Positions 6,346 to 51,983 of a DNA stretch of 64,000 bases are shown piece by piece (positions within the stretch are counted from its first letter, which is position 1; each line of letters starts with the position of its first letter). The stretch comes from an uncultured Bacteroidales bacterium. GTDB lineage: Bacteria > Bacteroidota > Bacteroidia > Bacteroidales > UBA3824. Location of the stretch: the NCBI GenBank assembly GCA_947168365.1, contig CAMVLO010000002.1:68770-132769 (forward strand), in the 5' to 3' direction. Made by a program: the position numbers and the translations under genes. The notes below the pieces were generated by a model that was not told the DNA's origin, ran no database searches, and saw nothing but the letters and a program-made list of their open reading frames with translations.

Positions 6346-6430
6346 TATCTTCCATACAAGATAAAAATACCTAAAAAGTATCTTGTATACAAGATAAAAT
6401 CACCTAAAAAGTATCTTGTATATAAGATAC
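6346..6430. promoter_or_regulatory. Three 18-20 bp dyad-symmetric sites at a 33-bp period (operator-like array)
   Basis: TATCTTccATACAAGATA (6346-6363), perfect palindrome TATCTTGTATACAAGATA (6379-6396) and GTATCTTGTATAtAAGATAC (6411-6430). Centres at 6354.5, 6387.5 and 6420.5. Confidence 0.6.
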
Positions 6431-6436
6431 TTTTTG

Positions 6437-6444
6437 TATATTTG
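6437..6444 (+). promoter_or_regulatory. Bacteroidetes-type -7 promoter box (TAnnTTTG)
   Basis: TATATTTG lies 17 nt upstream of the ATG at 6461 and directly abuts the third dyad. Confidence 0.5.
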
Positions 6445-6460
6445 CAGAAAAATTATTGAT

Positions 6461-30426: not shown

Positions 30427-30476
30427 AATTGCGTATTCGCCGAAAAAATGTCATCTTTGTCAAAATATCAGTTTTT

Positions 30477-31565
30477 ATGTATTTGCACAAAAAAAATAAT
30501 TGGCAGAATTTCAGGTACAACAACGATTTGATTGTTAGTATTTTGGGTAAAATAAGACTTCTTCAGGGTATTTTGTTAGGTAAGTCTTGCCGTCTTGGAT
30601 TCAATGTCCAAAATGAAAAATATCTTGAAACATTATCTCTCGAAATTATCAAATCGTCAGAGATAGAGGGTGAAAGCCTTAATATCCAACAAGTACGCTC
30701 GTCTTTAGCGCGTCGTCTTGGTATTAATGCTGCGGGGCTTGTGCCGTCAGCAAGGTACATCGACGGCATTGTAGAGATGAATCTTGATGCCACGCGCAAT
30801 TACAATCAACCGCTCACTGATGAAAGGCTTTTCGGTTGGCACAACGTACTATTTCCGACCGGTAGGAGCGGACTTTACAAAATTGAAGTTGGCAGATACC
30901 GTACGCGCGAGATGGAAGTAGTGTCAGAGCCGATGGGCATGGAGACTGTTCATTATCAAGCTCCTTCGCCGGATAGAGTTCCCGAAGAAATGCAAAAGTT
31001 TTTAACGTGGTTCAATGCGGGCAATGATATGGATTTAGTCTTGAAAGCTGCAATAGCGCATTTTTGGTTTGTAACTATTCATCCTTTTGACGATGGCAAC
31101 GGGCGTATTGCTCGTGCGTTGACGGATATGTTGCTCGCCAAATCAGAGGATTCTCCGTTGAGGTTTTACAGTGTTTCCAACGAAATAAATGCGGATCGCA
31201 ACGGTTATTACAGTATCCTCGAAGATACTGAGACCGGTGACGGCGATATTACATATTGGTTGCAATGGTTTCTTGAAAGTCTCAGAAAATCAATTGATAA
31301 GTCTATAGTTACGATTGATAAGGTTTTGGATAAAACTGATTTTTTTGCAAAAATATCTTCGCTTGCTGTTAATCAGCGTCAAAAGAAAATCCTGACGATG
31401 CTTTTGGACGGATTTGACGGCAAACTCACCACTGCCAAATATGCGAAAATAAACAAATGTTCGCAAGATACGGCATTGAATGATATCAAATTCCTTATTG
31501 AAAATGGAATTCTCGAAAAGACCGCTGACAAAGGGAAAAATACAGGATATCAACTTTTAAATTAA
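30477..31565 (+). CDS. Fic family protein (DUF4172-type N-terminus)
   Basis: Core Fic motif HPFDDGNGRIARAL. C-terminal winged-helix-like tail. I prefer the ATG at 30477 (MYLHKKNNWQNF...). Confidence 0.85.
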   Translation: MYLHKKNNWQNFRYNNDLIVSILGKIRLLQGILLGKSCRLGFNVQNEKYLETLSLEIIKSSEIEGESLNIQQVRSSLARRLGINAAGLVPSARYIDGIVEMNLDATRNYNQPLTDERLFGWHNVLFPTGRSGLYKIEVGRYRTREMEVVSEPMGMETVHYQAPSPDRVPEEMQKFLTWFNAGNDMDLVLKAAIAHFWFVTIHPFDDGNGRIARALTDMLLAKSEDSPLRFYSVSNEINADRNGYYSILEDTETGDGDITYWLQWFLESLRKSIDKSIVTIDKVLDKTDFFAKISSLAVNQRQKKILTMLLDGFDGKLTTAKYAKINKCSQDTALNDIKFLIENGILEKTADKGKNTGYQLLN

Positions 31566-32717
31566 AAATCCGCCGATGAGGATATCGTCCATTTGGACGT
31601 AACCTCCTTTCCATTTGTCAATAAAATCAGAGAGTTGCTGTTTTTGATATTCTCCGGAAGTATTTTGCTTACAAAGCTCGGTCAAAAGCTCTTTCAATCG
31701 TCCGTAAGTTACCTTTCGTTTGGTTGTTCCGCTGAATTGGTCAGCAAATCCGTCTGAAAACATGTATAAGTAATCGCCTTTTTGGGCTTGAATTGTTACT
31801 GTTTCAAAAGTTTTGGGGCGCGGATGTTGACCAATCGGATTTTTTATGCCTTTGTATTCTGTGAGTTCGCCGTTTCTTACGATGTAAAGTGGATTGTTTG
31901 CTCCGGAAAACTTCAGTTCCAAAGTGTCAAGATTTAGTAGACAGAATGCCATATCCATTCCGTCTTTTGGCTCGTCTTCGCATTGATGTTGACTCAATGC
32001 ATTGATAATAAAGCCTCTCAAGTTTTCAAGAATTTCCGACGGTGAGGATTTTTCTGTGATATTGCTGCATACTTCATTAAGAAAAGTCACGCCCAAAAGA
32101 CTCATGAACGAACCCGGCACACCGTGTCCTGTACAATCCGCAATTGTGAATGCAATAATATTTCCGCAGCGTTTCATCCAATAAAAATCGCCTGAAACTA
32201 TTTCTCTTGGTCGCCAAAACAGAAAATAGTCGGTGAAAGCATTTTTCAGAATTTCTGTTGGCGGCAAAACTGCGAGTTGTATTCTTTGTGCGTACTTAAT
32301 ACTGTCTGTTACAGCGCGATGCTTGCGTTCTATTTCGTTTTTTAGGATATTGATATGTTCCTTTTCTTTTTGCATTTGAATGCTCATCGACCAAAGCCGC
32401 TTGTTTTTCTCGGAAAATTCTATTTTTTCTTGTTCAAGTTTCTTTTGTTCGAGTAAAATTGTTGCTGCATCTACATTTACTTGAGTGGAAATTTGGGTTT
32501 GTTTTTCTTCCTGTTTAGTGTTTTTAAGATGTTCATAAAGAGCATTTTGACGGTCGTAAGCATCTTTGTAAATGCGTATTTGTTGTTTCATACGGTTTTC
32601 GGTGCGACGTGCTGATTTTTGCGCAATATTTCTGTTACGAAAATACAGCACAATTGCTATCACTCCAAAAAGTAATGCTACAACTATCAGGATAATATCT
32701 AATGTATTGAGTGTCAA
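31557..32717 (-). CDS. Membrane-anchored PP2C-family (SpoIIE/RsbU-like) serine phosphatase with coiled coil
   Basis: N-terminal TM (LDIILIVVALLFGVIAIVLYF), a coiled-coil stretch, then KYAQRIQLAVLP, SGDFYW, ADCTGHGVPG and FSDGFADQ. The TTG start overlaps the upstream stop (TTGA). Confidence 0.85.
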   Translation of the reverse strand: MTLNTLDIILIVVALLFGVIAIVLYFRNRNIAQKSARRTENRMKQQIRIYKDAYDRQNALYEHLKNTKQEEKQTQISTQVNVDAATILLEQKKLEQEKIEFSEKNKRLWSMSIQMQKEKEHINILKNEIERKHRAVTDSIKYAQRIQLAVLPPTEILKNAFTDYFLFWRPREIVSGDFYWMKRCGNIIAFTIADCTGHGVPGSFMSLLGVTFLNEVCSNITEKSSPSEILENLRGFIINALSQHQCEDEPKDGMDMAFCLLNLDTLELKFSGANNPLYIVRNGELTEYKGIKNPIGQHPRPKTFETVTIQAQKGDYLYMFSDGFADQFSGTTKRKVTYGRLKELLTELCKQNTSGEYQKQQLSDFIDKWKGGYVQMDDILIGGFLI

Positions 32718-34057
32718 TTTATCTGTAGATTTTCTAAGTTTGGTACATTATAAACATAAACCACAGAACCTACTGTAGTATTTGTTGAGGTTGATAAGTT
32801 GGTAACTGTTTGATTTGTTACTTTTGTTAAGTAAACATTGTAACCCGAATCGGAATCTTTGAATGTCGCAAAACATGCTACTCCGTCATCGTAATCCATT
32901 GTAACATTTGTTACCAATTCTCCGTCTTCAGTCAATATCAAAATCGAACCTGACAAACTGCTCAATCTTGATAACAAATCGTTTAAGGAATTGATTGATG
33001 ACGAGCCGGAAATATTTACGCCGGAAAAACATATATTACCGTTCAATTCTGTGACGTTCAGATATATAGATTCAGCGATGTAAGATTCATCGTTTCGATA
33101 TATTTCGTTGCCTTCGCTGTCTGTTTTTATTATTATGCTTTGACTGCTGCTACTTGCCGAAATATATGCGTAATCGCCTATTCGTGAACATGTTAAAGGA
33201 TAATAATCTATTTGTGAGGATTTAATTTCGTTGCCGTTTAAATCAAATATTTTCAAATAGTATTGAGAGTTTTCGTTTTCGTAATAGATGAAAACATTGT
33301 TGTTGACCGAAATTACCTCCAAAATATTGATAGTTTCAGAAAATTGCAATTCATTTTCGCTAACCCATTCGCCGTTGCTGTTGATATATCGGAGCGTAAG
33401 ATTGTACGAACTTGTTTGCATCATTCCTTGGTTCGGAGTTTGAAGAATCATGGCGTAACCTCCATTGTCCAAAGGAGTTCCGTTGGTTGGAACTCTGTTT
33501 GTATTATTTTTCTGATCCATCATATTTCCGCCTGCCATAGAAACTATGCTGTCGATTTGGAAAATTTTGTTGCAATCTTTGTCAAATTTTATTACCGCAA
33601 AATATGTACGTCCGAACGAATTTGCTGAATAATATTCGATGAAAAATTCGTCATTTACATTTTTTGTGATTTTTCCCGAGGAGATGTCAACTTTCGTATG
33701 ATTAGTTTCTTCCGGGCTGGGATTATTATTGTTATTATTTTCTTTGTTGTCCTCTTGGTTAGATAAATTGCCGTTGTTTGGATTGAATTGATTATTTGTT
33801 TCTAAATTCCACGACATCGTAAATTCTGTGGAAGTGGTTTCTGCTTTTTTGTCGATTTTTACAAATTTATACGTTGTAGTGTCGCCTTCGGAAGTTACAG
33901 TAATTATCGAACCGTCAGAGCATGCCACGGGCGTATAAATCGAAGCATTTTCAATCGATTTTATTGGTGAATCTTCGTAGTCGGAATACACGGGTTCTTT
34001 CTGACATGATACTGATAACAAGGCAATTGCCGATAATATGTTGATTGTATTTTTCAT
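32714..34057 (-). CDS. Lipoprotein with repeated beta-propeller-like strands and an Asn-rich linker
   Basis: LLSVSCQKE lipobox. Recurrent D/N-x-x-G-N/E-h motifs (INSNGEWV, IFDLNGNEI, KTDSEGNEIY, LTEDGELV). Low-complexity segment NKENNNNNNPSPEE. Confidence 0.7.
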   Translation of the reverse strand: MKNTINILSAIALLSVSCQKEPVYSDYEDSPIKSIENASIYTPVACSDGSIITVTSEGDTTTYKFVKIDKKAETTSTEFTMSWNLETNNQFNPNNGNLSNQEDNKENNNNNNPSPEETNHTKVDISSGKITKNVNDEFFIEYYSANSFGRTYFAVIKFDKDCNKIFQIDSIVSMAGGNMMDQKNNTNRVPTNGTPLDNGGYAMILQTPNQGMMQTSSYNLTLRYINSNGEWVSENELQFSETINILEVISVNNNVFIYYENENSQYYLKIFDLNGNEIKSSQIDYYPLTCSRIGDYAYISASSSSQSIIIKTDSEGNEIYRNDESYIAESIYLNVTELNGNICFSGVNISGSSSINSLNDLLSRLSSLSGSILILTEDGELVTNVTMDYDDGVACFATFKDSDSGYNVYLTKVTNQTVTNLSTSTNTTVGSVVYVYNVPNLENLQIN

Positions 34058-34079
34058 TGCTTTTATTTTCCTCCTTTTA

Positions 34080-35252
34080 TTAAAATCCGTATCCGTATTT
34101 AGCTTTTACCGAGTATCCGAATTTAAATTTGTAACCTACTCTTATATTGAAAGTTGCTAAGTGGATTGCGTCCGGTACAAACATCTTGTTGTAAAGCAAG
34201 TTGTGATTGTAATAATTGTACTCCGCATTGTTGAACGGGCGCAACATGTAAGAGAAACTTGCATCTGCGAAAAATGTATTTTGATTGAAATTGCGGTTGA
34301 TTCTCAATCCGCCGAAAACCGAACAGTTTATTCTGTTTTTGGTTTTCAGATCAATACTGTTGTCGCTTATTGTATTTTGTTGAGATTCACCGTATTCGTT
34401 GTAAGATTCGTATTTGGTTTTCAGCAAATAGTTTTGTTGGAATCCTGCATAAAATTCGGGAACTATTTTTTCTTTTCGGGTTGGATAAGTGATTGTTACA
34501 TATACCGGAACAGTCAGTAAATGAGATGATTCCTTATACACAAATTTGTAATCCAATTTCATTGAATTGTAATAAAAACTGTGATTTTCGGTTCTGGTAT
34601 ATTGCATAAAATTGTATTGCAATCCGGCAGCTACCGACACAAATTTTGTAATATAATACTGAAATCCTATTTCCGCTATAAAACCTTCAGTAGAAGAATA
34701 GTCGGGTTTGTTTTTGGAGTCTTCGTTGATAACATGTACAGTATCAATTATTACCATCGGTGTTGAGAGTCCGAAATTTATCCATGTTGCAAAACGCGGA
34801 AATGTGTAGAAATTTTTCTTCATTTCCTTAAAAGGCATCGGGTCGCTAACTTGTGTTTCGTAAAACGGATTTTTCTTTAGAAACAATTTCGTAACAGAAT
34901 CGGCTTCACGGTCAAAACCGGCTTCTTTGAGCGTTGATGCATAATATTTTAGAAATTCGGAATTTTCTTTGCTATTGAATTTTGTTTTGTTTAATGTTTT
35001 TGCTGTTTTAATCGCCTCGCTGTATTTTCCGGCATTGTACAACCTTTTGAAATTATACAAAAGAGTTTCGTTGCTGTTGTCTTGAGTGTTTTCTGCAAAT
35101 TCCGCAGTGCCGGTTTCTCCATCGGAATTCAGATTGTCAAAAAAATCTTTGAAATCTAAATCACTTGCGGTGGAATCCGGATTTTGTGCGCTCATTTTCA
35201 GCGACATCATCACAGCTATTATTGTTAATATTAATATTTTTGACGTCTTCAT
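34080..35252 (-). CDS. Outer-membrane beta-barrel protein with N-terminal helical (TPR-like) region
   Basis: Signal peptide ending MSAQ. Alternating-hydrophobic strands in the C-terminal two thirds, ending in aromatic ...KAKYGYGF. Confidence 0.6.
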   Translation of the reverse strand: MKTSKILILTIIAVMMSLKMSAQNPDSTASDLDFKDFFDNLNSDGETGTAEFAENTQDNSNETLLYNFKRLYNAGKYSEAIKTAKTLNKTKFNSKENSEFLKYYASTLKEAGFDREADSVTKLFLKKNPFYETQVSDPMPFKEMKKNFYTFPRFATWINFGLSTPMVIIDTVHVINEDSKNKPDYSSTEGFIAEIGFQYYITKFVSVAAGLQYNFMQYTRTENHSFYYNSMKLDYKFVYKESSHLLTVPVYVTITYPTRKEKIVPEFYAGFQQNYLLKTKYESYNEYGESQQNTISDNSIDLKTKNRINCSVFGGLRINRNFNQNTFFADASFSYMLRPFNNAEYNYYNHNLLYNKMFVPDAIHLATFNIRVGYKFKFGYSVKAKYGYGF

Positions 35253-35272
35253 ATTTTTTTTCTCTCTTTTTT

Positions 35273-38200
35273 TTACAATTCTTCTTTGGAGAATTCCTTT
35301 CCTAAAATCAGTTCTTTTTCTTCGGCTGAAAGCGGGTCCAGCTTTTGGTTGAATGTTTTTAATATTCTGGCGTAACTCTTAATATCTGTATTCCAAAAAC
35401 GAATCAATTTGTCTTCGGTAAGCGCAAAAATCATTCCTTTGGTATTGAAACTCATGTTTTTGACTTTGAATCCGTTGAGCGCGTGATCCTCAATATTCAG
35501 AATTTTGCTGTTTTCAATATCTTTGGTATCTATCAGCGAAATCCTTTTGTCGGCACTCGCTACTGCTAACAGTTGCGTATTCTTATCGTAAAACATATTT
35601 TCGATTTGAGAATGTGCGCAAACTTTGGTGCAGGTCTGTTTGTCGTTTTTGGTATTGAAAAATACTACATTTCCGTTTGAAACGCCGATTACAATCAGAT
35701 TTTTGTCGGGAATTGATGTCAGCGCAAATGCGTAGTTGCCCGGCGATTCGTAAATCGGTGTGGCTTCGCCCGTTTCGGGATTCCATTTCATAAGTTCGCT
35801 GGTGTGTGTTGCCAAATAGATATTGTTGTCAACAATACAGAATTCCGACACTTTGGATTGCGATGTAAATTCGTGTGACGGCTTTTCTTTGGGTTCGTAT
35901 GGATTCAATACCAAGATTTTGCCGTTGTTGAATGACAGTATGATATGTTTTTGGTCGCTTGTAAAAGTAGCGGCTGTTACATAATCTTTTATTGTTTTCA
36001 GTTGTGTTGATTTTTTATTATCGATGTCAACAAAATAAATGGATTTGTCTTTCATCGAAACCAACGCGTATTTGTCAGAAAGTAATATCGCTTTCAGTAC
36101 CGGTGCTTTGTTTTCGTTGACATTAAATGTCTTAATCAATTTTGCCTTGTTGGCTCCGAGTGCGTAAGTGCTGATTTGTGCATCATTTGTTATCAGACAT
36201 ATTTGATTGGCATTATTGATTTTGAATGTTGAGATATTTTTGGGAACATCTTTTAATATATTGTCGAAAACTTGTTGTTGTTCTATGGCGTAAAGCATTG
36301 CATCATAAAGTATTGCATCGTTGTTTCTGATATTGCGTTTTTCGCTGAGTTTGTATGCTGCCCAAGCAAGTTTCAGATTTAGTTCTTTGTCTTCGTATTG
36401 ATTTTTTGCATTCATAGCCAACATGTTGCAAAGTGTGATGTCATAAAGACGTTCCGAAGAATCTTTCGCCATTTTAGCATCTTTTTCACCTCTTTCGGCA
36501 CGCTCTTGAGCATCCTTTGCATTTCTCTCACCGGTTTCGGCACGCAAAAGGTTGGATAACGCTTGTTTTTCAGCTTTTTCGGCTCGTGAACGTTCTTCGT
36601 TGGCTTGTAAGAGTGCGCGTTCGGTAGCTTGTTGAGCAAGTCGGGCTTTTTGTTCTTCGTCGCGGGCATTTTGAGCGGCAATTTCTGCGGCTTCTTGCGC
36701 ATCATTGGCTTTTTGTCGCTCTGTTTCGGCTTCCAAACGTTTTTCTTCGGTTTTGGCTCTTTGTATTTCGGCAAGCTTTTGAGAATCTTCGGCTTTTGAC
36801 TTTTCTCTCATTGCCCAACCCGAAAACAAAAGCATTGTTACAATAAAGGCTATTGCGACAGCAATTATGGTTTTGAACTTACGCTTTTTAGCTTCTTCTT
36901 TTTCTAAAATTGCTTTTTTACTTGCCTCGATATAGTCAATACAATTTTCAAAATGAGTTGTTGCCTTTTCGATTTTTTCTTTTTCGGAAATTTTGCTGTT
37001 GTCGTACCTTGCAAGCCAATACGCATTGGGACGGCTTTTCTGATACCAATCGTTGAAATAGTTGTAAGAACCCGTAGGCAACAGATATTCTGCGCTTTGC
37101 TCGTGATGAAGCCAGCGTTTTACTTGTGCATCAAAATCATAAAAATCTTTTTGATTGTTTTCCATCTCGTAGCCCCACGATGCCAACATCTTCCAGTTAC
37201 GGATTAACGCCTCGTGAGTGATATCCAAAACAGTATCACCGCTAAGATATTGAGATTCAAAATTGTCCGGCTCGCTAAACGGGCGCAACAATGTGTTTTC
37301 GGGACTGCGGAATATATTGATAACGCCGCAAACTGTAGCGTTGTTAACATTGTCTTTGTTTATCATGCCCGTGATTTCGTCGAGAGTGCTGCGGTTTCTT
37401 ACAGGACGGTTGTTGTCTATTTTTACAAGACTTTTGAAAACCGTTTCAATAATTTGTTTACTCTCTTCGCGGGTGATATTCTTGGGAGCCCAACTTGCAT
37501 TCTGCTGAAAATGGTCGTAAGCCGATTCGTACAAAATTCCGGCGTGAGCGTTGAGAACATTGTTGAGGTCGGGCTTTTCAAAATACTTTTTCTCGTAATC
37601 GGGAAGTTTGGCAAACCATTGGTCAAAATCTTTTTGTTCTTCGTCGGAAAGTACATCTCTTGAAATTCCTGCAATTTTGGCAAGGTGCAACAAGTCAAGC
37701 TGTTTTTTGCCGTTGTCAGCCATTTTCCAAAGCAGATTGAGAGCGTGTTGAAGTACAGGAAGTTGGTCGGCACCGTCGTTGATATTATTTACAATTACTT
37801 CTGTAAGACGCGGCGATACACTTCCGCCCGCAAGTGTTGCAGGTTCTTCTATTACTTGACATATTTCCGTACGTTTTAGTTGAGGTACAAAAAACTGACT
37901 GTAGGCTATAAATTCAGGAAGATGTTTGAATACCGTACACTGACTTATAAAGTCACTACGCATTGTAAATGCCACATAGACAGGCAATTTTTGTGTAACA
38001 GCAATTCTTACGGTTTCCAAAAGAAGATTTATTGTAGTATAACATTCTTCGCTTGGGATTCCGTTGTTGAAATTATCTGAATTTGTAAAAACCTCTTCAA
38101 ATTGGTCGGCAATTATCAGAAGGTTTTTACCTCGATTAGCAGCGTCATCGCCTTCAGTTACATAAAAACCGTTCTTTTTGTACAAGTCAATTACAGAAGA

Positions 38201-38542
38201 AAATCCGTGGCTGAGTTCTTCAAGACAAGTATCATAATCAAGATCGGCATTTTGAGCAATAGACAGCGCAAGCGAAGCAAGAGGATTTCTCTGAGGTTTG
38301 AAATCTGCAATTATCCAGCTGTTGAAATCTGCCTTGAAAAATCCGGCTCTGATATACGGAACAACACCGGCATAAACCATCGATGATTTTCCGTCGCCGG
38401 AGGCTCCCGTGATGAAAACCATTTTGTTTTCTTCCAACAGTTTTACAATTTGACGTATATGTAAATCCCTGCCTTTGAAGAAAATCGATTCTTCTTCGGT
38501 AAAAGGTCTTAAACCCGGATATGGACAGATATTGGTTTTCAT
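35273..38542 (-). CDS. STAND (NLR-like) NTPase with internal TM helix, long charged coiled coil and C-terminal WD40-like beta-propeller
   Basis: CPYPGLRPFTEEESIFFKGRD, then ITGASGDGKSS (Walker A) and LLIIADQFEEVFT (Walker B). TM KFKTIIAVAIAFIVTMLLFSGWAM (about 36806-36880). E/A/K/R/Q-rich coiled coil (about 36440-36800). WD-like strands LLAVASADKRISLIDT and IFALTEDKLIRFWNT. Confidence 0.8.
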   Translation of the reverse strand: MKTNICPYPGLRPFTEEESIFFKGRDLHIRQIVKLLEENKMVFITGASGDGKSSMVYAGVVPYIRAGFFKADFNSWIIADFKPQRNPLASLALSIAQNADLDYDTCLEELSHGFSSVIDLYKKNGFYVTEGDDAANRGKNLLIIADQFEEVFTNSDNFNNGIPSEECYTTINLLLETVRIAVTQKLPVYVAFTMRSDFISQCTVFKHLPEFIAYSQFFVPQLKRTEICQVIEEPATLAGGSVSPRLTEVIVNNINDGADQLPVLQHALNLLWKMADNGKKQLDLLHLAKIAGISRDVLSDEEQKDFDQWFAKLPDYEKKYFEKPDLNNVLNAHAGILYESAYDHFQQNASWAPKNITREESKQIIETVFKSLVKIDNNRPVRNRSTLDEITGMINKDNVNNATVCGVINIFRSPENTLLRPFSEPDNFESQYLSGDTVLDITHEALIRNWKMLASWGYEMENNQKDFYDFDAQVKRWLHHEQSAEYLLPTGSYNYFNDWYQKSRPNAYWLARYDNSKISEKEKIEKATTHFENCIDYIEASKKAILEKEEAKKRKFKTIIAVAIAFIVTMLLFSGWAMREKSKAEDSQKLAEIQRAKTEEKRLEAETERQKANDAQEAAEIAAQNARDEEQKARLAQQATERALLQANEERSRAEKAEKQALSNLLRAETGERNAKDAQERAERGEKDAKMAKDSSERLYDITLCNMLAMNAKNQYEDKELNLKLAWAAYKLSEKRNIRNNDAILYDAMLYAIEQQQVFDNILKDVPKNISTFKINNANQICLITNDAQISTYALGANKAKLIKTFNVNENKAPVLKAILLSDKYALVSMKDKSIYFVDIDNKKSTQLKTIKDYVTAATFTSDQKHIILSFNNGKILVLNPYEPKEKPSHEFTSQSKVSEFCIVDNNIYLATHTSELMKWNPETGEATPIYESPGNYAFALTSIPDKNLIVIGVSNGNVVFFNTKNDKQTCTKVCAHSQIENMFYDKNTQLLAVASADKRISLIDTKDIENSKILNIEDHALNGFKVKNMSFNTKGMIFALTEDKLIRFWNTDIKSYARILKTFNQKLDPLSAEEKELILGKEFSKEEL

Positions 38543-39408
38543 AATGCCGTTTTTGCAGTTGTTTTGTCAAAAAATACTTTGATATCCAACGGTAAAAGGC
38601 TGATTTCGTGAATTATTGTTTCGATAATTCCGTCAAAAATTTTCAGTTCTTCTTCGTTGGCATGTGCGCTGTTGCCCACCAAAAAAATCGGAGTTTTGCC
38701 GGATTGACCACCGTTGTCTTTCCACACTTGTCTTGCAAACGATACCGCCCAATCGCCGGCATAATTATAATATATCACTCCAATTTTGCAGCCGGAGAGT
38801 TGATTTTTGATATATTCGGTATAATCGATATTGCTGTTCATAGATATTCCGAGAGTAGTTACAGTTTGAATATCTTCCAACATGTGGGAAATCTCTTCAG
38901 CTGTTTGCTTGTCTAAATCGTTGTAAATAAAAAAGATGTCTTTGTGTTGAATTTCTTGTTGAACTTCGGTACGGATATTCATAATCGTTCTGAGTTCTTC
39001 TACAAAAACAATCGCAGAAGTTTTGGACGAGTAAATAGTGTTTTCTACAATTTCGCGTCTGATATTGTTGATATACTTATTGTTGTCAGTAATCTGTCCC
39101 GACGGATTCCATACAAACATCTTGAAAGTTTTGCTTCTGAGATTTTTTGCCAATCGGTATTGTTTGCCGGCATTGCTGTTGAAACCTTTGCCTTGAGGGT
39201 CGTAAATATCTACGTTGCCCAATAGATGTATCGAACAATCTGATTGTTGCATCAATTGTATATCAGTATCCTCGTTGCCGGACGAGTTGAAAACCTTGAT
39301 TCCGGCTTTTCCCAAAATAATACATAGCTTATTTTTCGTTTCCGACATATCGTTAGAAACATCGGCAACAAATACTTTTATTTCATGTGTAAATAAGCTA
39401 ATATCCAT
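38539..39408 (-). CDS. Two-domain protein: DUF4062-like N-terminal domain plus TIR-like C-terminal domain
   Basis: N-terminus KVFVADVSNDMSETKNKL...SDCSIHLLGN follows the DUF4062 pattern. C-terminus DIFFIYNDLDKQTAEEISHML...IGVIYYNYAGDWA follows the TIR beta-A/alpha-A start. The stop overlaps the STAND gene start (ATGA). Confidence 0.55.
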   Translation of the reverse strand: MDISLFTHEIKVFVADVSNDMSETKNKLCIILGKAGIKVFNSSGNEDTDIQLMQQSDCSIHLLGNVDIYDPQGKGFNSNAGKQYRLAKNLRSKTFKMFVWNPSGQITDNNKYINNIRREIVENTIYSSKTSAIVFVEELRTIMNIRTEVQQEIQHKDIFFIYNDLDKQTAEEISHMLEDIQTVTTLGISMNSNIDYTEYIKNQLSGCKIGVIYYNYAGDWAVSFARQVWKDNGGQSGKTPIFLVGNSAHANEEELKIFDGIIETIIHEISLLPLDIKVFFDKTTAKTAL

Positions 39409-40095: not shown

Positions 40096-40131
40096 TAAAA
40101 AAAGAGCGGAACGATAAAATCGAACCGCTCT
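40096..40131 (-). terminator. Rho-independent terminator of the 40155-40892 gene
   Basis: On the minus strand, an AGAGCGG...CCGCTCT stem followed by T7. Confidence 0.7.
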
Positions 40132-40154: not shown

Positions 40155-40892
40155 TTAAGAATTTGTTACCTCCGTTTTTACCTCGGTGTCAGTAGACACT
40201 TCGGTAGTAGAGTTTTTGTTTAATCCCTTCGATTTGTCAAACAATTCGTTGATAATCAATGCAAACTCGTTGCATGACTTAGGAGCTATATAAGCATTAT
40301 ATGCGTTGACATAATCTGCAAATTCGCCCCATGCTTTGTTCAAAGCATCGCGTGCGCCCGGTTTGTAACCCTTATTCGCTTGGTAATAATTACCTCTTAA
40401 GTCGTATAAACTTTCGTGTTTATCCAACAAATTTGCTACTATTGACAATAAGATGTCAATACTAAGTGTTTTGAGAGCCGGTTTCCCAAGTTGATTAAAC
40501 TCGTTTAATTGTCGTTTAATTTTTTCAATTTTCTTAAACAAATTATTTCCTTTGAGAATGCCGTATTTGTCAACAATCTCTTTGGCTGTCTTTGCGAGAT
40601 CCGAAATTTGTGTTTCCGGATTATACACATTGGCAGTGATAATCTGTCTAATTGAATTAAAGACATTAAACATCTGTTTCCTCACCTCGGTAAGCTCTAC
40701 CGTATAAGGGTTGGTTCTCTGTTTTTCAACAGCTGTTACCAACAAATTGTAGTTTTCAGTGAAATTTTTAGCATATTCACTGTTTCGTACTTCTTCAGGC
40801 AACTTTCCCAAAGTTGCGAGTGCTCGTGCCGCGAAGTACAGCGTTTCTAGGTTCGAAAACCTAACGAGACTTTTTAAACAAAAGTAGTTCAT
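40155..40892 (-). CDS. Hypothetical all-helical protein (possibly the Bacteroidota-specific DUF6261-like family; from memory only)
   Basis: 245-aa ORF with an ATG start and its own terminator. Segment VRNSEYAKNF resembles the LRNxEHxxF motif of that family. Thr/Glu/Val-rich tail. Confidence 0.6.
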   Translation of the reverse strand: MNYFCLKSLVRFSNLETLYFAARALATLGKLPEEVRNSEYAKNFTENYNLLVTAVEKQRTNPYTVELTEVRKQMFNVFNSIRQIITANVYNPETQISDLAKTAKEIVDKYGILKGNNLFKKIEKIKRQLNEFNQLGKPALKTLSIDILLSIVANLLDKHESLYDLRGNYYQANKGYKPGARDALNKAWGEFADYVNAYNAYIAPKSCNEFALIINELFDKSKGLNKNSTTEVSTDTEVKTEVTNS

Positions 40893-41239
40893 AGTGTTTA
40901 AAAATTTAAAAGTGTTAATAAATAAAGTTAATTATAATTGCCTAATGATTTAATTACAACCGACTGTTTTATTCTTTTTTGCTATTCTCTATTATTTCGA
41001 GTCGGAATTACGTTTGTTCAATCAATTAGAACACTACAATGATACAAAATCTTTTTTAATTGTGCAAATCTTTGCTATTCAATGACTTCTATAATCTATC
41101 AAAAATCATATAAAAATATCCGTTTTTGTAGTAAAATTCGCCTTTACAGATACTTGTGGCGGTTTTTGTTAAAAAATATTAAATTATATAATTGATTATC
41201 AAACAGATATGTAATTCTTGCTGATTTTGACATCTTTTT

Positions 41240-41765
41240 GTTTGAAAAATTCTTGGAATTCTTGAAAATTGTATCGCTACGAGAAATGAAAATTCTTGGA
41301 ATTCTTGAAAATTGTATCGCTACAAGAAATGAAATTACCGGAAATTATTAATCTTGTATCGCTACAAGAAATGAAATTACCGGAAATTATTAATCTTGTA
41401 TCGCTACAAGAAATGAAATTACCGGAAATTATTAATCTTGTATCGCTACAAGAAATGAAATTACCGAAAATTATTAATCTTGTATAGCTACAAGAAATGA
41501 AATTACCGGAAATTATTAATCTTGTATCGCTACAAGAAATGAAATTACCGAAAATTATTAATCTTGTATCGTTACAATAAAGGAAATTACCGGAAATTAT
41601 TAATCTTGTATCGCTACAATAAAGGAAATTTCCGGAAATTATTAATCTTGTATCGCTACAATAAAGGAATTTTCTGAAAATTATTAATCTTGTCACGCGA
41701 CAAGAAAGGAAATTATCGGGAATTATGAATCTTGTTGCGACAATATTTTGTATTTTCTGACATCT
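41240..41765. repeat. Tandem array of 12 units, 42-bp period, two dyad motifs per unit
   Basis: The GTATCGCTAC core recurs at 41271, 41314, 41356, 41398, 41440, 41482, 41524, 41566, 41608, 41650, 41692 and 41734. Consensus unit: CTTGTATCGCTACAAGAAATGAAATTACCGGAAATTATTAAT. Confidence 0.9.
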
Positions 41766-41905
41766 TGTCTTATTATATTCTGTCAAAAAGTTAGTCGATT
41801 GTCATTTTTTGTGACAGTTTGTCATTAAAATTTATTCGGTACGGGGTTTGATTGTTGGCATTCGGAAATTTTAATTTAAGTAAAACATCTAAAACTATAT
41901 AAAAT

Positions 41906-43972
41906 ATGGCAACGACAGGTAAAATTGGAGTTACAAGTGAGAACATCTTCCCTGTAATCAAAAAATTCTTGTATTCAGAACAGGAAATCTTTTTAAGAGA
42001 ATTGGTTTCCAACGCAGTAGATGCTACTACAAAGGTAAAAGCATTGGCAAGAAAAGGCGATCTCAAGGAAGACCTTGGCGATTTGACAGTAAGAGTGAAT
42101 GTTGACAAAGATAAAAAGACTATCACTATTTCGGATCACGGTATCGGTATGACTTCTGAGGAGGTTGACAAATATATCAATCAGATTGCATTCTCATCAG
42201 CAGGCGACTTCCTTGAAAAATACAAGGATTCTATTGATGCTATTATCGGTCATTTCGGACTCGGATTCTACTCTGCATTTATGGTTTCAGAAAAGGTTGA
42301 CATCATCACAAAGAGTTGGCAGCCTGATTCCAAAGCTGTAAAATGGAGTTGCGACGGCAGCCCTGAGTATCAGATGGAAGAAACCGAAAAGGCTGAACGT
42401 GGTACTGATATTATTCTTCATATCGACAACGATTCGGCAGAGTATCTCGAAGATGCCAAGATTGAAGGTTTGCTCAAGAAATATTGTATGTTCCTTCCTG
42501 TTCCTATTGCTTTTGGCAAGATTAAGGAATGGAAAGAAGATAAATATGTTGATACCGACAAAGATAAGGTTATCAATGATACTGAACCGCTTTGGACTAA
42601 AAAACCGTCGGAACTCAAGGATGAGGATTACAAGAATTTCTACAAGAAACTTTATCCTTCTACTTTTGAAGATCCGTTGTTTAATATCCATTTGAATGTA
42701 GATTATCCGTTTACACTTACAGGTATTTTGTATTTCCCGAAAATCCGTACTAATTTGGAAATTCAGAAAAACAAAATCCAGTTGTATTGCAACCAAGTAT
42801 ATGTTACAGACAATGTAGAAGGTATTGTGCCTGAGTTCTTAACATTGCTTCATGGTGTATTGGATTCTCCGGATATTCCTTTGAATGTATCAAGAAGTTA
42901 TTTGCAGTCGGATTCTAATGTAAAGAAAATCAGCAACCATATTACAAAGAAAGTTGCTGACAAGCTTACAGATATTTTCAAGAATCAGCGCGAAGATTTG
43001 GAAAAGAAATGGGACGATCTCCGTTTGTTCATTCAATACGGTATGCTTACAAACGACAAGTTCTATGAGTCAGCCAAAGATTTCTTCTTGTACAAAAATA
43101 CCGAAGACAAATATTTTACTTTGGATGAATACAAGAATATCATCAAAGCAAACCAAACTGACAAAAACAATACTATAATAATACTTTACGCTACCAACAA
43201 GGAAGATCAGTATTCATTTATTTCGGCAGCCAAAGAAAAAGGTTACGATGTATTGATTTTGGATTCAGCATTTGATTCACATTTTATCAACCAGGTAGAA
43301 CAAAAGAATTCAGATGTAAGATTTATGCGTGTAGATTCTGATACATTGGACAAACTTATCAGAAAAGAAGACGCTCCAAAATCTACATTGACCGATACCG
43401 AAAAATCAGATTTGTCAGCAGTATTCAATTCACAAACACCAAAGAATTCCAACAAGAATTTCACAGTAGAATTTGATACCTTGTCGGCAGACGATATGCC
43501 TGTATTGATTACCCAGAGCGAATTTATGCGTCGTATGAAAGATATGGGTAAGATGGGCGGTCCAGAATCAAGTTTCTACAACAATCTTCCTGACAATCTC
43601 AATCTTGTTGTCAACGAAAACCATCCGATAGTAAAATCAATAATTGCGGATGCAAAATCGGCAACAGCAGCTGATGTTACAAAATTGGAAGACGAGTTGA
43701 AACCTTTGAAATCTGATTTGGAAAGTCTTGAAAAGCTTACCAAAGACAAGAAAGAGGAAGAAATCAGTACCGAAGAGAAAACCAAGAAAGAGGAATTACA
43801 GAAGAAAATCTCAGACTTGGAATCAAAACGCAAAGAGGTATTTGAGAAATATGCCGGCGGCAACAAGTTGGTTAAACAATTGATAGACTTGGCATTGTTG
43901 GCAAACAACATGCTTAGAGGCGAAGATCTTACCAAATTTGTAAAACGTTCGGTAGAATTTATTGGAAAATAA
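41906..43972 (+). CDS. htpG: Molecular chaperone HtpG (Hsp90)
   Basis: IFLRELVSNAVDA, SDHGIGMT, IGHFGLGFYSAFMV and LNVSRSYLQ are Hsp90 signature blocks. 688 aa. Confidence 0.95.
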   Translation: MATTGKIGVTSENIFPVIKKFLYSEQEIFLRELVSNAVDATTKVKALARKGDLKEDLGDLTVRVNVDKDKKTITISDHGIGMTSEEVDKYINQIAFSSAGDFLEKYKDSIDAIIGHFGLGFYSAFMVSEKVDIITKSWQPDSKAVKWSCDGSPEYQMEETEKAERGTDIILHIDNDSAEYLEDAKIEGLLKKYCMFLPVPIAFGKIKEWKEDKYVDTDKDKVINDTEPLWTKKPSELKDEDYKNFYKKLYPSTFEDPLFNIHLNVDYPFTLTGILYFPKIRTNLEIQKNKIQLYCNQVYVTDNVEGIVPEFLTLLHGVLDSPDIPLNVSRSYLQSDSNVKKISNHITKKVADKLTDIFKNQREDLEKKWDDLRLFIQYGMLTNDKFYESAKDFFLYKNTEDKYFTLDEYKNIIKANQTDKNNTIIILYATNKEDQYSFISAAKEKGYDVLILDSAFDSHFINQVEQKNSDVRFMRVDSDTLDKLIRKEDAPKSTLTDTEKSDLSAVFNSQTPKNSNKNFTVEFDTLSADDMPVLITQSEFMRRMKDMGKMGGPESSFYNNLPDNLNLVVNENHPIVKSIIADAKSATAADVTKLEDELKPLKSDLESLEKLTKDKKEEEISTEEKTKKEELQKKISDLESKRKEVFEKYAGGNKLVKQLIDLALLANNMLRGEDLTKFVKRSVEFIGK

Positions 43973-48656: not shown

Positions 48657-49439
48657 ATGAAACAATTAAAGTATATATTAACATCACTATTAGCTGTAAT
48701 AATTGTTGGATGTAAAACTCCTAAAGATATAGCGTATTTTCAAGATTTGAAAGAAGATACGGTTATGAAAATTGAGAGCGAGAGCCCTAACTTCAGATTG
48801 AAACCGGGGGATAAATTATCGATCGTTGTAACATGTCGTGATAAGCAAGTTGCAGAGATGTTTAATTTAATCAGACCGACTTTCAACAGTGGTGGTAGTT
48901 CCGGTTCAATTGTTTATTATACCGTAAATCCTGATGGTACAATTGATTTCCCTTTAATTGGTTCAATAGAAGTAGTGAATTTGACACGTTCTGAATTGGA
49001 AAATTTAATAAAAAGTAAACTCATTGAACTTCAATATATACAAGATCCGGTTGTAATAGTAGAATTTAATAGTCTTTATTACAATGTTTTGGGCGAGGTT
49101 ACAAAACCCGGTCGCTATAATATCACAACAGATAAATTTACTGTTCTTGATGCAATAGGAGCTGCCGGAGATTTAACCATTCAAGGCTTGAGAAAGAATG
49201 TTAAAATAATTAGAGAAGAAGCCAACGGTCGTCAAGTTTATGAAATAGATTTGACCAACGCTGAAAGTATTCTCACGTCTCCTGCATATTATATTCAACA
49301 GAATGATGTTTTGTATGTAGAAGGAAACAATCAGCGTAAGAGACAATCTCTTGTAAACGGAAATACAACGCATTCAGCATCGTTTTGGATTTCGGTTGCA
49401 TCACTCTTGGGATCTATGTATGTAATATTTGTAAAGTAA
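48657..49439 (+). CDS. Polysaccharide export protein (Wza-like)
   Basis: Lipoprotein signal (IIVGCKTP). DIAYFQDL and FRLKPGDKLSIVV Poly_export motifs, plus a SLBB-like region. Confidence 0.85.
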   Translation: MKQLKYILTSLLAVIIVGCKTPKDIAYFQDLKEDTVMKIESESPNFRLKPGDKLSIVVTCRDKQVAEMFNLIRPTFNSGGSSGSIVYYTVNPDGTIDFPLIGSIEVVNLTRSELENLIKSKLIELQYIQDPVVIVEFNSLYYNVLGEVTKPGRYNITTDKFTVLDAIGAAGDLTIQGLRKNVKIIREEANGRQVYEIDLTNAESILTSPAYYIQQNDVLYVEGNNQRKRQSLVNGNTTHSASFWISVASLLGSMYVIFVK

Positions 49440-49451
49440 CTTTTTAAAGAA

Positions 49452-51983
49452 ATGGTAGAAAATCAGGTAGCTGAAACACAACAAGTTGAAGCAAAAGAAA
49501 TATCAGCACAAAGTACATTAAATATTCCGGATTTGATATTTGCATGCCTATCAAGATGGTGGTGGTTTGCTGTATCAGTTTTGATTTGTGCATCAATTGC
49601 TGTTGCGTATTTACTTACAACTCCCAAAATATATACTCGTTCTGCTGCGATTATGATTAAAGAAGAAAGTAAAAAAACTTCTTCTTTTAGTAGTAAGATG
49701 AATTCGTTCGCAGAAATGGGTATGTTTTCGATGGAGTCAAGTGTTTACAACGAACTTATTGCTATACAATCTCCTTCATTGATGTTGGAAGTTGTAAAGA
49801 GATTAAAACTTGATTACAATTATGCAATTGAAGATAAATTTCGTAAGTTAGTTGTATACGGATATTCACTTCCGTTTGAGGCAGAATTGTTGGATGCAAC
49901 GGATATGACTTCAGGAAGTTTTACAATTGTATTGTCATCTGACGGTTCATTTTTTATGACTGACTTTTTGTTTCCGGGAACTGATGAGCCAATTAAGGAA
50001 ATTGTAAAAGGTGTTGCCGGTACTAAAGTCAACACTCCGCTTGGTGATGTTTTGATTACAGGAAATAAGTACCTTAGTAAAATAGAAAAACCTACAAAAT
50101 ATTTTGTTAGTAAAAGTTCTTTGAGAGGTTCGATGTTGGCATATAGCGGTAAATTTTCAGCATCTTTAAATGATAAAAAAGCTTCTGTAATTACACTTAC
50201 TGTAAATGATCAAAATATTCAGAGGGCAGAGGACATCTTGAATATGATGATTACAGTATACAATGAGAAGTGGGTAGAAGATAAAAACCAACTTGCTATT
50301 AGTACTTCATATTTTATTAACGACCGTTTGAATAAAATCGAGCAGGAGTTAGGAAGTATTGATGGTGATGTTTCTTCGTTTAAGTCGTCTAACTTATTAC
50401 CTGATATTGAGAAATCAAGTGATATGTTTTATACTCAGGCCAATACGCTTAATAATCAGATTATTTTACTGAACACTCAGTTGTATATGGCTCAGCAAGT
50501 GAAGTCGTATGTGGCTGACACTACAAAAAAATATCAACTGATTCCGGTATATTTGGGCGGCGAAAACAATGGAGCTACAGAACGTCAAGTTTCGGAATAC
50601 AACGCTGCTGTATTGCAACGTAATAGTTTGATTGCTTCTTCTTCTGAGAAAAACCCGTTGGTGAAAGATATAAATGAGAAAATCGATGATATGAGAGCTA
50701 CTATTATCGGTTCTATCAACAATCAGATAAATTACATCAATGCTCAGATTAAGTCGTTGAAAAACAATTTGAATCAGAGTATTTCTCATATTTCGAGCAA
50801 CCCTGACAAAGCTAAATATTTGTTGACAATTCAAAGACAGCAAAAGATTAAAGAATCACTTTATTTGTTTTTACTTCAAAAACGTGAAGAAAATGAATTG
50901 TCACAAGCATTTACTGCATACAATACACGTTTGATTACGCCTCCTATGGGTGCTAACAAACCGACAAAACCTCAGAATATGAAGATTATAGGTATTGCGG
51001 TAGCTTTGGGACTTGTAATTCCGTTTGGTATTATATTCTTGATTGAATCCAATAATACCAAAGTACGTTCTCGCAAAGATTTGGAGAATCTTTCAATTCC
51101 TTTTGTTGGAGAGATTCCTCAACATACTCGTATTCATCGCAAAGGTATATTAAAATTTCTCAAACGCAGAAAAGAATATGATGTTGACGTAAAACAGATA
51201 CTTGTAAAACCCGATTGTAAAAATGTTACTAATGAGGCTTTCAGAGTTGTGAGAAGTAACATCGAGTTTATTAATACTACCGAGGAAAAAAAAGTTGTAC
51301 TTGTAACATCGTTGATGACAGGTAGTGGTAAGTCGTTTATTTCGTCTAACTTGGGTGCTTCTTTTGCGTTAAAATCCAAGAAAACTATTGTAATTGACTT
51401 AGACTTACGTAAAGCTTCTTTGAGTCAGTTAGTTGACAGTCCTGAATCCGGAGTTTCTACATTTCTTGCCGGTTACGACCAGGATTGGAAACCATTAGTA
51501 AAACAGATTCGTGAGAATTATTATATTTTGCCGGCGGGTGTTATTCCGCCTAATCCGGCTGAACTTCTTTACTCAAATCGTTTTGACCGTATGATCAACG
51601 AAATGAAAGAAGAATATGACTGGATTCTTTTGGACTGTCCTCCGGTAGAAATTGTTGCTGATACAAGTATTATTGCACGTCATGTCAACATGTCGTTGTT
51701 CATTGTAAGAATTGGTAATCTTGATCGTAGTATGCTTCCGATTATTGATAAGATGTATCTTAGCAAGAAGTTGCCGAATGTTTGTTTGCTTCTTAACGGT
51801 AGCAAAACTGCCAATGGTCATTACGGTTACTCACGTTACGGTTATGGTTACGGATACGGTTACGGCTATGGCTATGGATACGGTTACGGCTATGGTTATG
51901 GATACGGTTACGGAGTTTCTGATGATGAAGCTTTCGATGATGACGTTGAAACTGTTCCGAAAAAGAAACATCGTAAAAAGTAG
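49452..51983 (+). CDS. Polysaccharide co-polymerase / BY-type tyrosine kinase (Wzc-like)
   Basis: Wzz-like N-terminus with two TM helices. VTSLMTGSGKSF Walker A and ILLDCPP Walker B. Tyr-rich C-terminal tail. Confidence 0.85.
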   Translation: MVENQVAETQQVEAKEISAQSTLNIPDLIFACLSRWWWFAVSVLICASIAVAYLLTTPKIYTRSAAIMIKEESKKTSSFSSKMNSFAEMGMFSMESSVYNELIAIQSPSLMLEVVKRLKLDYNYAIEDKFRKLVVYGYSLPFEAELLDATDMTSGSFTIVLSSDGSFFMTDFLFPGTDEPIKEIVKGVAGTKVNTPLGDVLITGNKYLSKIEKPTKYFVSKSSLRGSMLAYSGKFSASLNDKKASVITLTVNDQNIQRAEDILNMMITVYNEKWVEDKNQLAISTSYFINDRLNKIEQELGSIDGDVSSFKSSNLLPDIEKSSDMFYTQANTLNNQIILLNTQLYMAQQVKSYVADTTKKYQLIPVYLGGENNGATERQVSEYNAAVLQRNSLIASSSEKNPLVKDINEKIDDMRATIIGSINNQINYINAQIKSLKNNLNQSISHISSNPDKAKYLLTIQRQQKIKESLYLFLLQKREENELSQAFTAYNTRLITPPMGANKPTKPQNMKIIGIAVALGLVIPFGIIFLIESNNTKVRSRKDLENLSIPFVGEIPQHTRIHRKGILKFLKRRKEYDVDVKQILVKPDCKNVTNEAFRVVRSNIEFINTTEEKKVVLVTSLMTGSGKSFISSNLGASFALKSKKTIVIDLDLRKASLSQLVDSPESGVSTFLAGYDQDWKPLVKQIRENYYILPAGVIPPNPAELLYSNRFDRMINEMKEEYDWILLDCPPVEIVADTSIIARHVNMSLFIVRIGNLDRSMLPIIDKMYLSKKLPNVCLLLNGSKTANGHYGYSRYGYGYGYGYGYGYGYGYGYGYGYGYGVSDDEAFDDDVETVPKKKHRKK

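Follow-up and report, generated by a model that had tools for sequence, protein, structure and literature searches.

Phased repeat arrays, of which sopC, iterons and parC are examples, and intergenic elements of Bacteroidota that bear minisatellites are known kinds of bacterial DNA. In the sopC centromere of the F plasmid, a 43-bp direct repeat occurs 12 times, and SopB binds the 16-bp inverted repeat that each copy contains (PMC3177203); in Porphyromonas gingivalis, MITEPgRS/MITE464 carries a 41-nt tandem "Repeat C" in up to 14 copies, and BrickBuilt, a 23-nt minisatellite inside a MITE (miniature inverted-repeat transposable element), shows promoter activity (PMC4596501, PMC2575886). Here we analyse a 64,000-nt stretch of DNA from an uncultured Bacteroidales bacterium (contig CAMVLO010000002.1, positions 68,770 to 132,769; hereafter the window), which holds an array of 12 tandem, palindrome-bearing 42-bp units upstream of a gene of the DUF6261 family (PF19775). 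We see about an even chance that this array is the form that a conserved cis-element, placed ahead of DUF6261 genes across Bacteroidota, takes in this species, and that it acts as a phased platform for protein on double-stranded DNA.

The array resembles sopC in having 12 repeats of about four helical turns (42 vs. 43 bp), a 16-bp inverted repeat, and dyads on one face of the helix; it differs in that each unit holds two different dyads, the linked gene is a DUF6261 gene, and the window has neither sopA, sopB or another par gene nor any plasmid or sequence similarity. With iterons, ParR-parC and omega-type arrays it shares short, helically phased repeats upstream of an adjacent operon (a regulated one there, a putatively regulated one here), 21–22-bp phasing, and rapidly co-evolving repeat sequences; iterons and parC, however, are direct repeats with a Rep or ribbon-helix-helix (RHH) protein encoded next door, whereas here there are dyads, a chromosomal locus and no such gene. 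The P. gingivalis elements come from the same phylum and are likewise intergenic tandem repeats of similar unit length, with variable copy number and many copies per genome, and sister arrays of ours in Proteiniphilum, Verrucomicrobiales and Bacteroidia are dispersed in the same way. Those MITEs have a leader, a tail and IS5-type terminal inverted repeats; no such terminal repeats were found here, where one locus is known in the species, and a link to DUF6261 is not described for them.

Array structure and conservation within the species

Tandem Repeats Finder (TRF), run on the 64-kb window, reported positions 41269–41735 with a period of 42, 11.1 copies, 91% matches and a score of 708, the sole long-period tandem repeat with at least three copies in the window. 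Printing the units in register resolved unit starts at 41262, 41305, 41347 ... 41725, i.e. a first interval of 43 bp and remaining intervals of 42 bp, with units that abut without spacers. The features of the locus are as follows.

41262–41766, no strand: tandem array of 12 units (TRF and in-register prints; self-match at lag 42, 0.99).
41353–41368, no strand: example copy of dyad 1, CTTGTA-tcgc-TACAAG (pattern matching and in-register print).
41375–41388, no strand: example copy of dyad 2, AATTaCCGGAAATT, centred 21 bp from the dyad 1 centre.
41627–41640, no strand: perfect 14-bp palindromic version of dyad 2, AATTTCCGGAAATT.
41689–41704, no strand: copy of dyad 1 with compensated changes, CTTGTC-acgc-GACAAG, belonging to the unit that starts at 41683 (A to C in one arm, T to G in the other).
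40155–40892, minus strand: DUF6261 (PF19775) gene of 245 amino acids (Pfam E = 6.2e-7, 29.9 bits vs. a gathering score of 27).
40931–40959, minus strand: promoter-like TTGTAA-17-TATAAT, ending 38 nt before the DUF6261 ATG.
40960–41261, no strand: AT-rich spacer from the array to the DUF6261 promoter (comparison of the window with contig L062).
40109–40130, minus strand: terminator-like hairpin and T-run just past the DUF6261 stop.
41906–43972, plus strand: htpG (Pfam HSP90), the neighbour on the other side, with its ATG 140 bp from the array end.

The central units share the consensus ATTAATCTTGTATCGCTACAAGAAATGAAATTACCGGAAATT, laid out as ATTAAT-CTTGTA-tcgc-TACAAG-aaatga-AATTaCCGGAAATT, and the centres of dyad 1 and dyad 2, at 41360.5 and 41381.5, lie exactly 21 bp apart. 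The TTGTA-N4-TACAA core of dyad 1 is kept, or swapped symmetrically, in all 12 units, with five exact matches to CTTGTA-N4-TACAAG within the array; with a free spacer, CTTGTA-N(0-8)-TACAAG is matched seven times in the window (G+C 36.7%), against 0.02 expected by chance, and five of these matches fall inside the array. The dyad 2 motif AATTWCCGGAAATT is found in every central unit. Divergence is greatest in the outer units, where symmetry nevertheless persists: the compensated variant at 41689–41704 is also present in strains L054–L062, and in the unit starting at 41725, which reads CTTGT-tgcg-ACAAT, each arm is one base shorter and the dyad is still symmetric. A preliminary description of this DNA, made from the letters alone, had reported the 12 units with their strict period and 43-bp first interval, both dyads and the 14-bp palindrome, the 21-bp centre-to-centre spacing, and the divergence of the outer units, and our TRF run, in-register prints and pattern matches agree with it on each of these, two of the outer units having compensated dyads.

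The array occupies a 1013-bp gap (40893–41905) between the DUF6261 gene and htpG; the preliminary description gave this gap correctly, with the former gene as a hypothetical one. The DUF6261 gene is transcribed away from the array, whose end lies 370 bp from its ATG, and the protein aligns with family members from residue one. The terminator-like hairpin and T-run at 40109–40130 suggest that the gene is monocistronic. Comparison of the window with L062 showed that the promoter-proximal DNA 5′ of the ATG is well conserved, with more variation towards the array.

Every strain sampled from the species retains the array, in a version of 10 or 12 units. The array is present on all eight contigs from other samples whose HtpG is identical, and the short-read contigs of the species (the L054–L061 set) break off within it. 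The contig L054, from a metagenome-assembled genome (MAG), has 10 units, i.e. two 42-bp units fewer than the window. A scan of Joint Genome Institute metagenomes with a 30-nt unit pattern returned a sole contig, L062; it represents the same DUF6261-array-htpG locus, again with 10 units. As to other copies in this species, only the htpG/DUF6261 locus turned up, there being no complete genome to search.

The sequence TGACATCTT occurs at 41228–41236 and at 41758–41766, both copies being present in the window as had been described. The left flank of L062 differs from that of the window and does not contain it; because the left copy is absent in this sibling strain, the recurrence of TGACATCTT is probably due to chance rather than to target-site duplication. 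No flanking inverted repeat of at least 13 nt brackets the window array.

A second, smaller repeat in the window uses the same half-site. At 6346–6429, a 33-bp unit is repeated 2.5 times, and each unit holds the 18-bp palindrome TATCTTGTATACAAGATA, which has the TCTTGTA half-site of the 42-bp array in a spacerless form. This repeat lies directly upstream of an AAA_14/DUF4143 ATPase gene (6416–7717, plus strand), divergent from an unannotated open reading frame (ORF) of 222 amino acids (5609–6277, minus strand), and is likely a set of operators.

Linkage of 41–43-bp arrays to DUF6261 genes

Related arrays were sought with a pattern of two CTTGTA-N4-TACAA dyads 20–40 bp apart, in one genome per GTDB species. 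This yielded 48 loci; although 21 spacings were allowed, the period is mostly exactly 42 bp, and in some loci 41 or 43 bp, and TRF found arrays of 3–14 units. The carriers are both MAGs and isolates in Bacteroidota (Proteiniphilum, Tannerellaceae, Chitinophaga, Saprospiraceae, Prolixibacteraceae, Odoribacter and Parabacteroides), together with a Verrucomicrobiales MAG and an Ignavibacteria MAG with 21-bp units. Dyad 1 of the related arrays is typically TTGTAA-N2-TTACAA, and the rest of the unit is variable, often with a TTTCCG/CGGAAA dyad.

All-against-all BLASTP of the ORFs that flank these arrays grouped three ORFs of about 245–312 amino acids, and Pfam assigned these three, an ORF flanking the array of L045, and 40155–40892 (minus strand) of the window to DUF6261/PF19775; a local profile search added L020. 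At the pattern-found loci L020, L024, L039, L045 and L053, the 5′ end of the DUF6261 gene always faces the array. Searching from the protein instead, with a profile, we found upstream arrays also for two members, P0004 (a marine metagenome) and P0001 (Parabacteroides-like); these two protein-found loci, L063 and L066, have arrays of 41 bp × 5.2 and 41 bp × 5.3. An unbiased sample was drawn from 107 homologues of the L024 protein, of which nine, picked solely for sitting on long contigs, were looked up. L076, where only 40 bp remain upstream of the DUF6261 gene, was uninformative and was left out; in seven of the eight others (L072, L073, L074, L075, L077, L079 and L080), the top self-match in the upstream 900–1000 bp was at a lag of 41–43, and the eighth, L078, has no such array. 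In the control regions, comprising the gene and the downstream 900 bp, the self-match never exceeded 0.44 and the best lags were random. Altogether, a 41–43-bp array lies upstream of DUF6261 in 15 of 16 informative loci, the window included.

The flanking genes are unrelated between DUF6261 loci, and htpG adjoins DUF6261 in the window and in none of the 15 others. DUF6261 loci are often beside genes of mobile or defence type: N6 DNA methylases (L072, L079), RhuM (L079), a zeta toxin (L077) and a Y1 (IS200/IS605-type) transposase (L075). The gene and its array may therefore form a module that lies in variable islands.

Between array and gene, a TTGnnn-N17-TAnnnT site is present in 12 of 15 loci, compared with 24% of shuffled sequences, always with a spacer of 17 nt, and in seven loci it takes the form TTGACT-17-TAAnTT. 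The strict Bacteroidetes −7 motif TAnnTTTG, which was also tried, occurs upstream of DUF6261 in only 1 of 14 loci; the looser site is the one that is conserved. As the array lies upstream of the likely promoter, it is not part of the DUF6261 mRNA.

The sequence of the unit changes much faster than its length. The TTGYA-N4-TRCAA core is present in 8 of 13 aligned arrays; the L073 array uses TTTCCCGAAAATGGGAAA and the L075 array CCCGAGTGTCGGG, and the arrays of L079 and L080 use other dyad pairs. Two congeners illustrate the rate: the loci of Mangrovibacterium lignilyticum (L074) and M. marinum (L080) are syntenic, their proteins share 59% identity and their promoter regions can be aligned over about 110 bp, whereas their array units are unalignable, one locus having about three weak units and the other at least nine units of 41 bp. 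Unalignable units beside an alignable promoter indicate that the arrays turn over fast and yet keep their period.

In several genomes, arrays of the same kind sit within dispersed repeats of 600–790 bp (blastn; four-copy alignment): four copies in a Proteiniphilum MAG, copies on six contigs in a Verrucomicrobiales MAG, and two in the Bacteroidia genome DATDOJ. These copies adjoin unrelated genes (GH67, esterase, tatA, peroxiredoxin, greA and the 3′ end of groEL); at L031, the array lies between convergent genes, at the 3′ end of a chaperonin gene. That arrays of this kind are dispersed repeats in other genomes indicates that the element can be copied to new sites, and arrays linked to DUF6261 resemble dispersed ones of the same genome: by blastn, the L039 array matches L018 at 81%, and the L020 array matches L017, L044 and L050 at 79–83%. 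A single-copy partner gene flanked by a repeat that is dispersed elsewhere (L039 vs. L018; L020 vs. L017/L044/L050) recalls repetitive extragenic palindromes (REPs), their composite bacterial interspersed mosaic elements (BIMEs) and the REP-associated tyrosine transposases (RAYTs), as do extragenic palindromes in regular arrays of species-specific sequence. BIMEs, however, consist of one palindrome in alternating orientation, are found mostly 3′ of genes and reach hundreds of copies, and RAYTs are HUH/Y1 enzymes, whereas DUF6261 is predicted to be a helical bundle with no catalytic fold.

In the Verrucomicrobiales MAG RYN_621, loci L007, L016, L021, L032, L034 and L048 carry a 650–720-bp repeat with 42-bp TTGTACGCGTACAA arrays. 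A DUF6261 gene was not detected at these six loci, and the arrays represent either spread beyond Bacteroidota or a binning artefact.

The DUF6261 family profile collects 4,981 clusters (50% identity) at E ≤ 1e-10. AlphaFold2 models of the window protein and of a typical member (mean predicted local distance difference test scores of 82.5 and 86.5) both comprise ten helices and a disordered tail. Foldseek searches of the PDB and BFVD returned nothing below E = 0.05, the matches being generic elongated coiled-coil bundles, with no nuclease, HUH or catalytic fold among them. The median isoelectric point of the family is 5.3, from which the window protein, at 8.9, is an outlier. A sequence search of the PDB gave only a weak match to BibA (E = 0.002); NCBIfam, PADLOC and PHROGs contain no DUF6261 match, and IMG/VR no homologue. 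The idea of a recognizable DNA-binding or defence protein finds no support in any of these searches, and DUF6261, as modelled, is not an evident DNA-binding protein. Searched in open-access full text, the name "DUF6261" turned up in one paper, on daptomycin resistance in Streptococcus oralis; neither its title nor its abstract deals with the family. In a large protein collection, most DUF6261 proteins are encoded on contigs of only 1–3 kb.

A proposed double-stranded platform and its rivals

The pattern of sequence change within the dyads points to double-stranded DNA. We compared 47 units drawn from eight arrays. Each of the five inner pairs of dyad 1 is of the Watson-Crick type in 38–42 of the 47; the TTGTA/TACAA half-sites are conserved between families, whereas the central 4 bp are free and are inverted even within one array (CCCC vs. 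GGGG). G·T and A·C pairs are equally frequent, at 15 each, and therefore neither strand is favoured as RNA. Predicted folding beats shuffled sequence in most arrays, the sense strand being the more stable in seven and the antisense strand in six, while the arrays of L072, L073 and L075 fold barely better than shuffles. The dyads include loop-less perfect palindromes (AATTTCCGGAAATT, TTGTAACGTTACAA and GTAGGCCTAC). A tight period of 41–43 bp that does not depend on the sequence, about 4 × 10.5 bp, is what phasing on double-helical DNA predicts, and the array most likely acts as such.

Other roles for the repeat were tried and rejected. The array can be read through on the minus strand in one open frame, and in L054 an ORF of 55 residues is called; periods of 41 and 43 bp in homologous arrays rule out a coding repeat, and a search with a pseudo-protein of this frame found no match. 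It is not a CRISPR array: the units abut and there are no unique spacers. Rfam gave no match at the gathering score, and only chance-level ones at E up to 10; no tRNA or tmRNA was found in the window. DnaA boxes are not enriched, as they would be at an oriC, and blastn of the array against 72,556 plasmids gave no match that would indicate a plasmid origin. For a phage origin, there were only 54-bp chance matches (E = 1e-3), and five pattern matches in IMG/VR proved to be coding repeats or chance.

We propose that the element consists of 3 to 12 or more tandem 41–43-bp units of about four helical turns, each unit bearing one or two short palindromes, and that the run of units is placed upstream of a promoter-like site and a monocistronic DUF6261 gene. 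With a period of a whole number of helical turns, all dyads (every 21 bp in the window) would face one side of the helix and any intrinsic bends of the units would add in phase. A dimeric, sequence-specific protein would bind this platform cooperatively and, once bound, would control how active the promoter or promoters next to it are, chiefly the promoter of the DUF6261 gene. The putative binder would recognize TTGTA-N4-TACAA, possibly with a second protein for the TTCCGGAA-type dyad. The FNR box TTGAT-N4-ATCAA, an operator of the CRP/FNR type, is a 5-N4-5 palindrome; dyad 1 resembles such operators in its 5-N4-5 geometry, conserved half-sites and free centre, whereas known CRP/FNR sites are single or paired at promoters rather than in 12 phased copies, and no CRP/FNR gene is linked to the array. 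A search of open-access full text for the TTGTA-N4-TACAA motif returned nothing relevant.

Several observations weigh against this proposal. DUF6261 appears to be an acidic helical bundle without a helix-turn-helix or RHH fold and without a Foldseek match at E < 0.05. The gene-proximal end of the array lies anywhere from 43 to 390 bp upstream of the ATG, and its distance from the promoter is not fixed. L073, L075, L079 and L080 are without TTGTA-N4-TACAA, the unit sequence being quickly replaced, and therefore one conserved factor cannot explain all arrays. Two dyads about half a period apart are found in only about 6 of 13 arrays (the window, L039, L053, L077, L079 and L080, the window and L079 being judged by eye). 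Finally, arrays with the same dyad lie beside unrelated genes, some of them within the dispersed repeats of about 650 bp.

The last of these points keeps a selfish or neutral minisatellite a serious rival, if one that we judge rather improbable: a slippage-prone or MITE-borne repeat would spread and expand in permissive intergenic DNA, and its link to DUF6261 would reflect co-mobility or a tolerant, long upstream region. Besides the 600–790-bp dispersed repeats of other genomes, the variation between strains (12 vs. 10 units), the degenerate edge units, the fast turnover of the unit between congeners and the frequent placement of DUF6261 loci in variable or defence-like islands all fit it, and BrickBuilt and MITEPgRS/MITE464 provide a precedent in the same phylum (PMC4596501, PMC2575886). 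Neutral slippage, however, would not be expected to hold a 41–43-bp period whatever the sequence, or to place the array at the same relative position in 15 of 16 DUF6261 loci despite unrelated contexts and diverged sequences; compensated changes maintain the symmetry of the dyads; and the window array has no terminal inverted repeats, its candidate 9-bp duplication is not conserved, and the sole other public contig with the unit is the same locus. The preliminary description had named a dispersed, MITE-like repeat beside unrelated genes as the outcome that would speak against its reading; this is what is seen for the sister arrays elsewhere; in this species, for which there was no complete genome to search, the one locus alone turned up. 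The compensated changes, together with an inverted repeat in every unit, could also be read as an array of hairpins that works as single-stranded nucleic acid, either a non-coding RNA bearing two small stem-loops per 42 nt (for instance a protein sponge or a processed repeat RNA) or cruciform or single-stranded DNA hairpins recognized by structure, as REPs are by RAYTs. Most arrays do fold much better than shuffled sequence, the dyads persist while their sequence is lineage-specific, as recognition of structure would allow, and the sequence shared between a DUF6261-linked array and dispersed copies of the same genome recalls the RAYT-REP pairing. We nevertheless regard hairpins as unlikely: stability shows no strand bias (7 vs. 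6), G·T and A·C pairs are equal in number (15 each), Rfam has no match, and three arrays (L072, L073, L075) barely beat shuffles; the stems are short and AT-rich, and the loop-less palindromes cannot form full-length RNA hairpins; in the direction of DUF6261 transcription, the promoter motif comes after the array; and the protein has no nuclease or HUH fold.

The preliminary description had favoured a nucleoprotein assembly site, in the form of a centromere, an iteron or a silencer, or alternatively a phased, curved-DNA element that controls the heat-shock gene htpG. The general idea of phased dyads that assemble protein fits best what we find, i.e. a constrained period, one helical face, compensation and no RNA signal; its specific forms fare worse. 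A sopC-like partition centromere, or an iteron or other replication-control array, has in its favour the near identity of layout (12 × 43 bp with a 16-bp inverted repeat in sopC, 12 × 42 bp with a 16-bp dyad here) and the 21-bp spacing of the dyads, which is typical iteron phasing. Nonetheless, we hold it to be highly improbable: among the window ORFs of at least 120 amino acids, Pfam finds no ParA, ParB, ParR, RHH, KorB or Rep, the only P-loop AAA_31 protein being a Wzc-like tyrosine kinase that adjoins wza; the neighbours are chromosomal housekeeping genes, and the 72,556 plasmids of PLSDB gave no blastn match; DnaA boxes number 18 against 20 expected, with none within 600 bp of the array; the product of the partner gene is an acidic helical bundle rather than a centromere-binding fold; and several such arrays occur per genome elsewhere. 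Intrinsically curved DNA that tunes htpG, for example as a thermosensor, is very unlikely. The array does end 140 bp upstream of the htpG ATG, a period of whole turns would sum any unit bend in phase, the units are AT-rich, and the L031 array is also beside a chaperonin gene, though at its 3′ end. On the other side, htpG adjoins none of the 15 other DUF6261 loci, whereas the array precedes DUF6261 in 15 of 16; GC-rich arrays (L072, L079) keep the period without A-tracts; and htpG has a separate candidate operator, TGTCA-N7-TGACA, at 41800–41827. The htpG gene is thus unlikely to be a functional partner of the array, and its proximity would be incidental. A supposed htpG homologue downstream of another array, a 686-residue ORF at L040, proved to be a GH67 glycosidase.

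The data show the array, its phasing, its conserved linkage to DUF6261 and its place relative to that gene, the promoter motif between the two, and the lack of strand-specific RNA signals; from these we infer protein binding, its cooperativity and a transcriptional output. More tentatively, and with less than an even chance of being right, the DUF6261 gene and the 41–43-bp phased dyad array could form a two-part system of Bacteroidota, in which the array would be a fast-evolving, genome-specific lattice for a co-evolving protein (DUF6261 itself, with a new DNA-binding mode, or a partner), and the copies seeded elsewhere in the genome would be further targets. The logic would be like that of ParB-parS or RAYT-REP with new components, and the system could serve chromosome organization, silencing or a stress response. 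Our searches of open-access full text found no description of a phylum-wide pairing of 41–43-bp dyad arrays with DUF6261, nor of a geometry that is kept while the sequence is replaced.

The pairing gives a first handle on a large family without an assigned function. A cis-element that keeps its geometry and replaces its sequence would be a natural model for protein-DNA lattices that form cooperatively, and for how repeats and their binders co-evolve. Should the array control DUF6261, or both divergent promoters, changes in the number of 42-bp copies would tune expression while preserving phase. The arrays probably also break short-read assemblies, which may explain why the element has escaped notice and stays hidden in MAG-based surveys.

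Neighbouring genes and minor features

Pfam scans of the same set of window ORFs returned chromosomal housekeeping and envelope genes, including pta, a Mur ligase gene, ddl, his genes, htpG, rlmH and wza/wzc, as well as genes for a GH5 enzyme, an S46 peptidase and transporters.

A minus-strand cluster at 30429–39408 adjoins the DUF6261 gene. It encodes an nSTAND1-WD40 NTPase (35273–38542), a SpoIIE-type phosphatase (31557–32717) and unannotated proteins of 289, 390 and 447 amino acids, together with a Fic/DOC protein on the plus strand (30429–31565). The cluster looks like a conflict or signalling island; PADLOC gives no match in it.

Between the array and htpG, the sequence GATTGTCAttttttGTGACAgttTGTCAtt at 41800–41827 combines the TGTCA-N7-TGACA dyad with a third TGTCA. 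It sits 80–105 bp upstream of the htpG ATG and may be an htpG operator distinct from the array.

At 51835–51913, a DNA repeat of 6/12/24 bp (GTTACG...) gives the Wzc-like protein (843 amino acids, 49452–51983), which adjoins wza (48657–49439), a (Gly-Tyr)n tyrosine cluster close to its C-terminus; this is an ordinary coding repeat.

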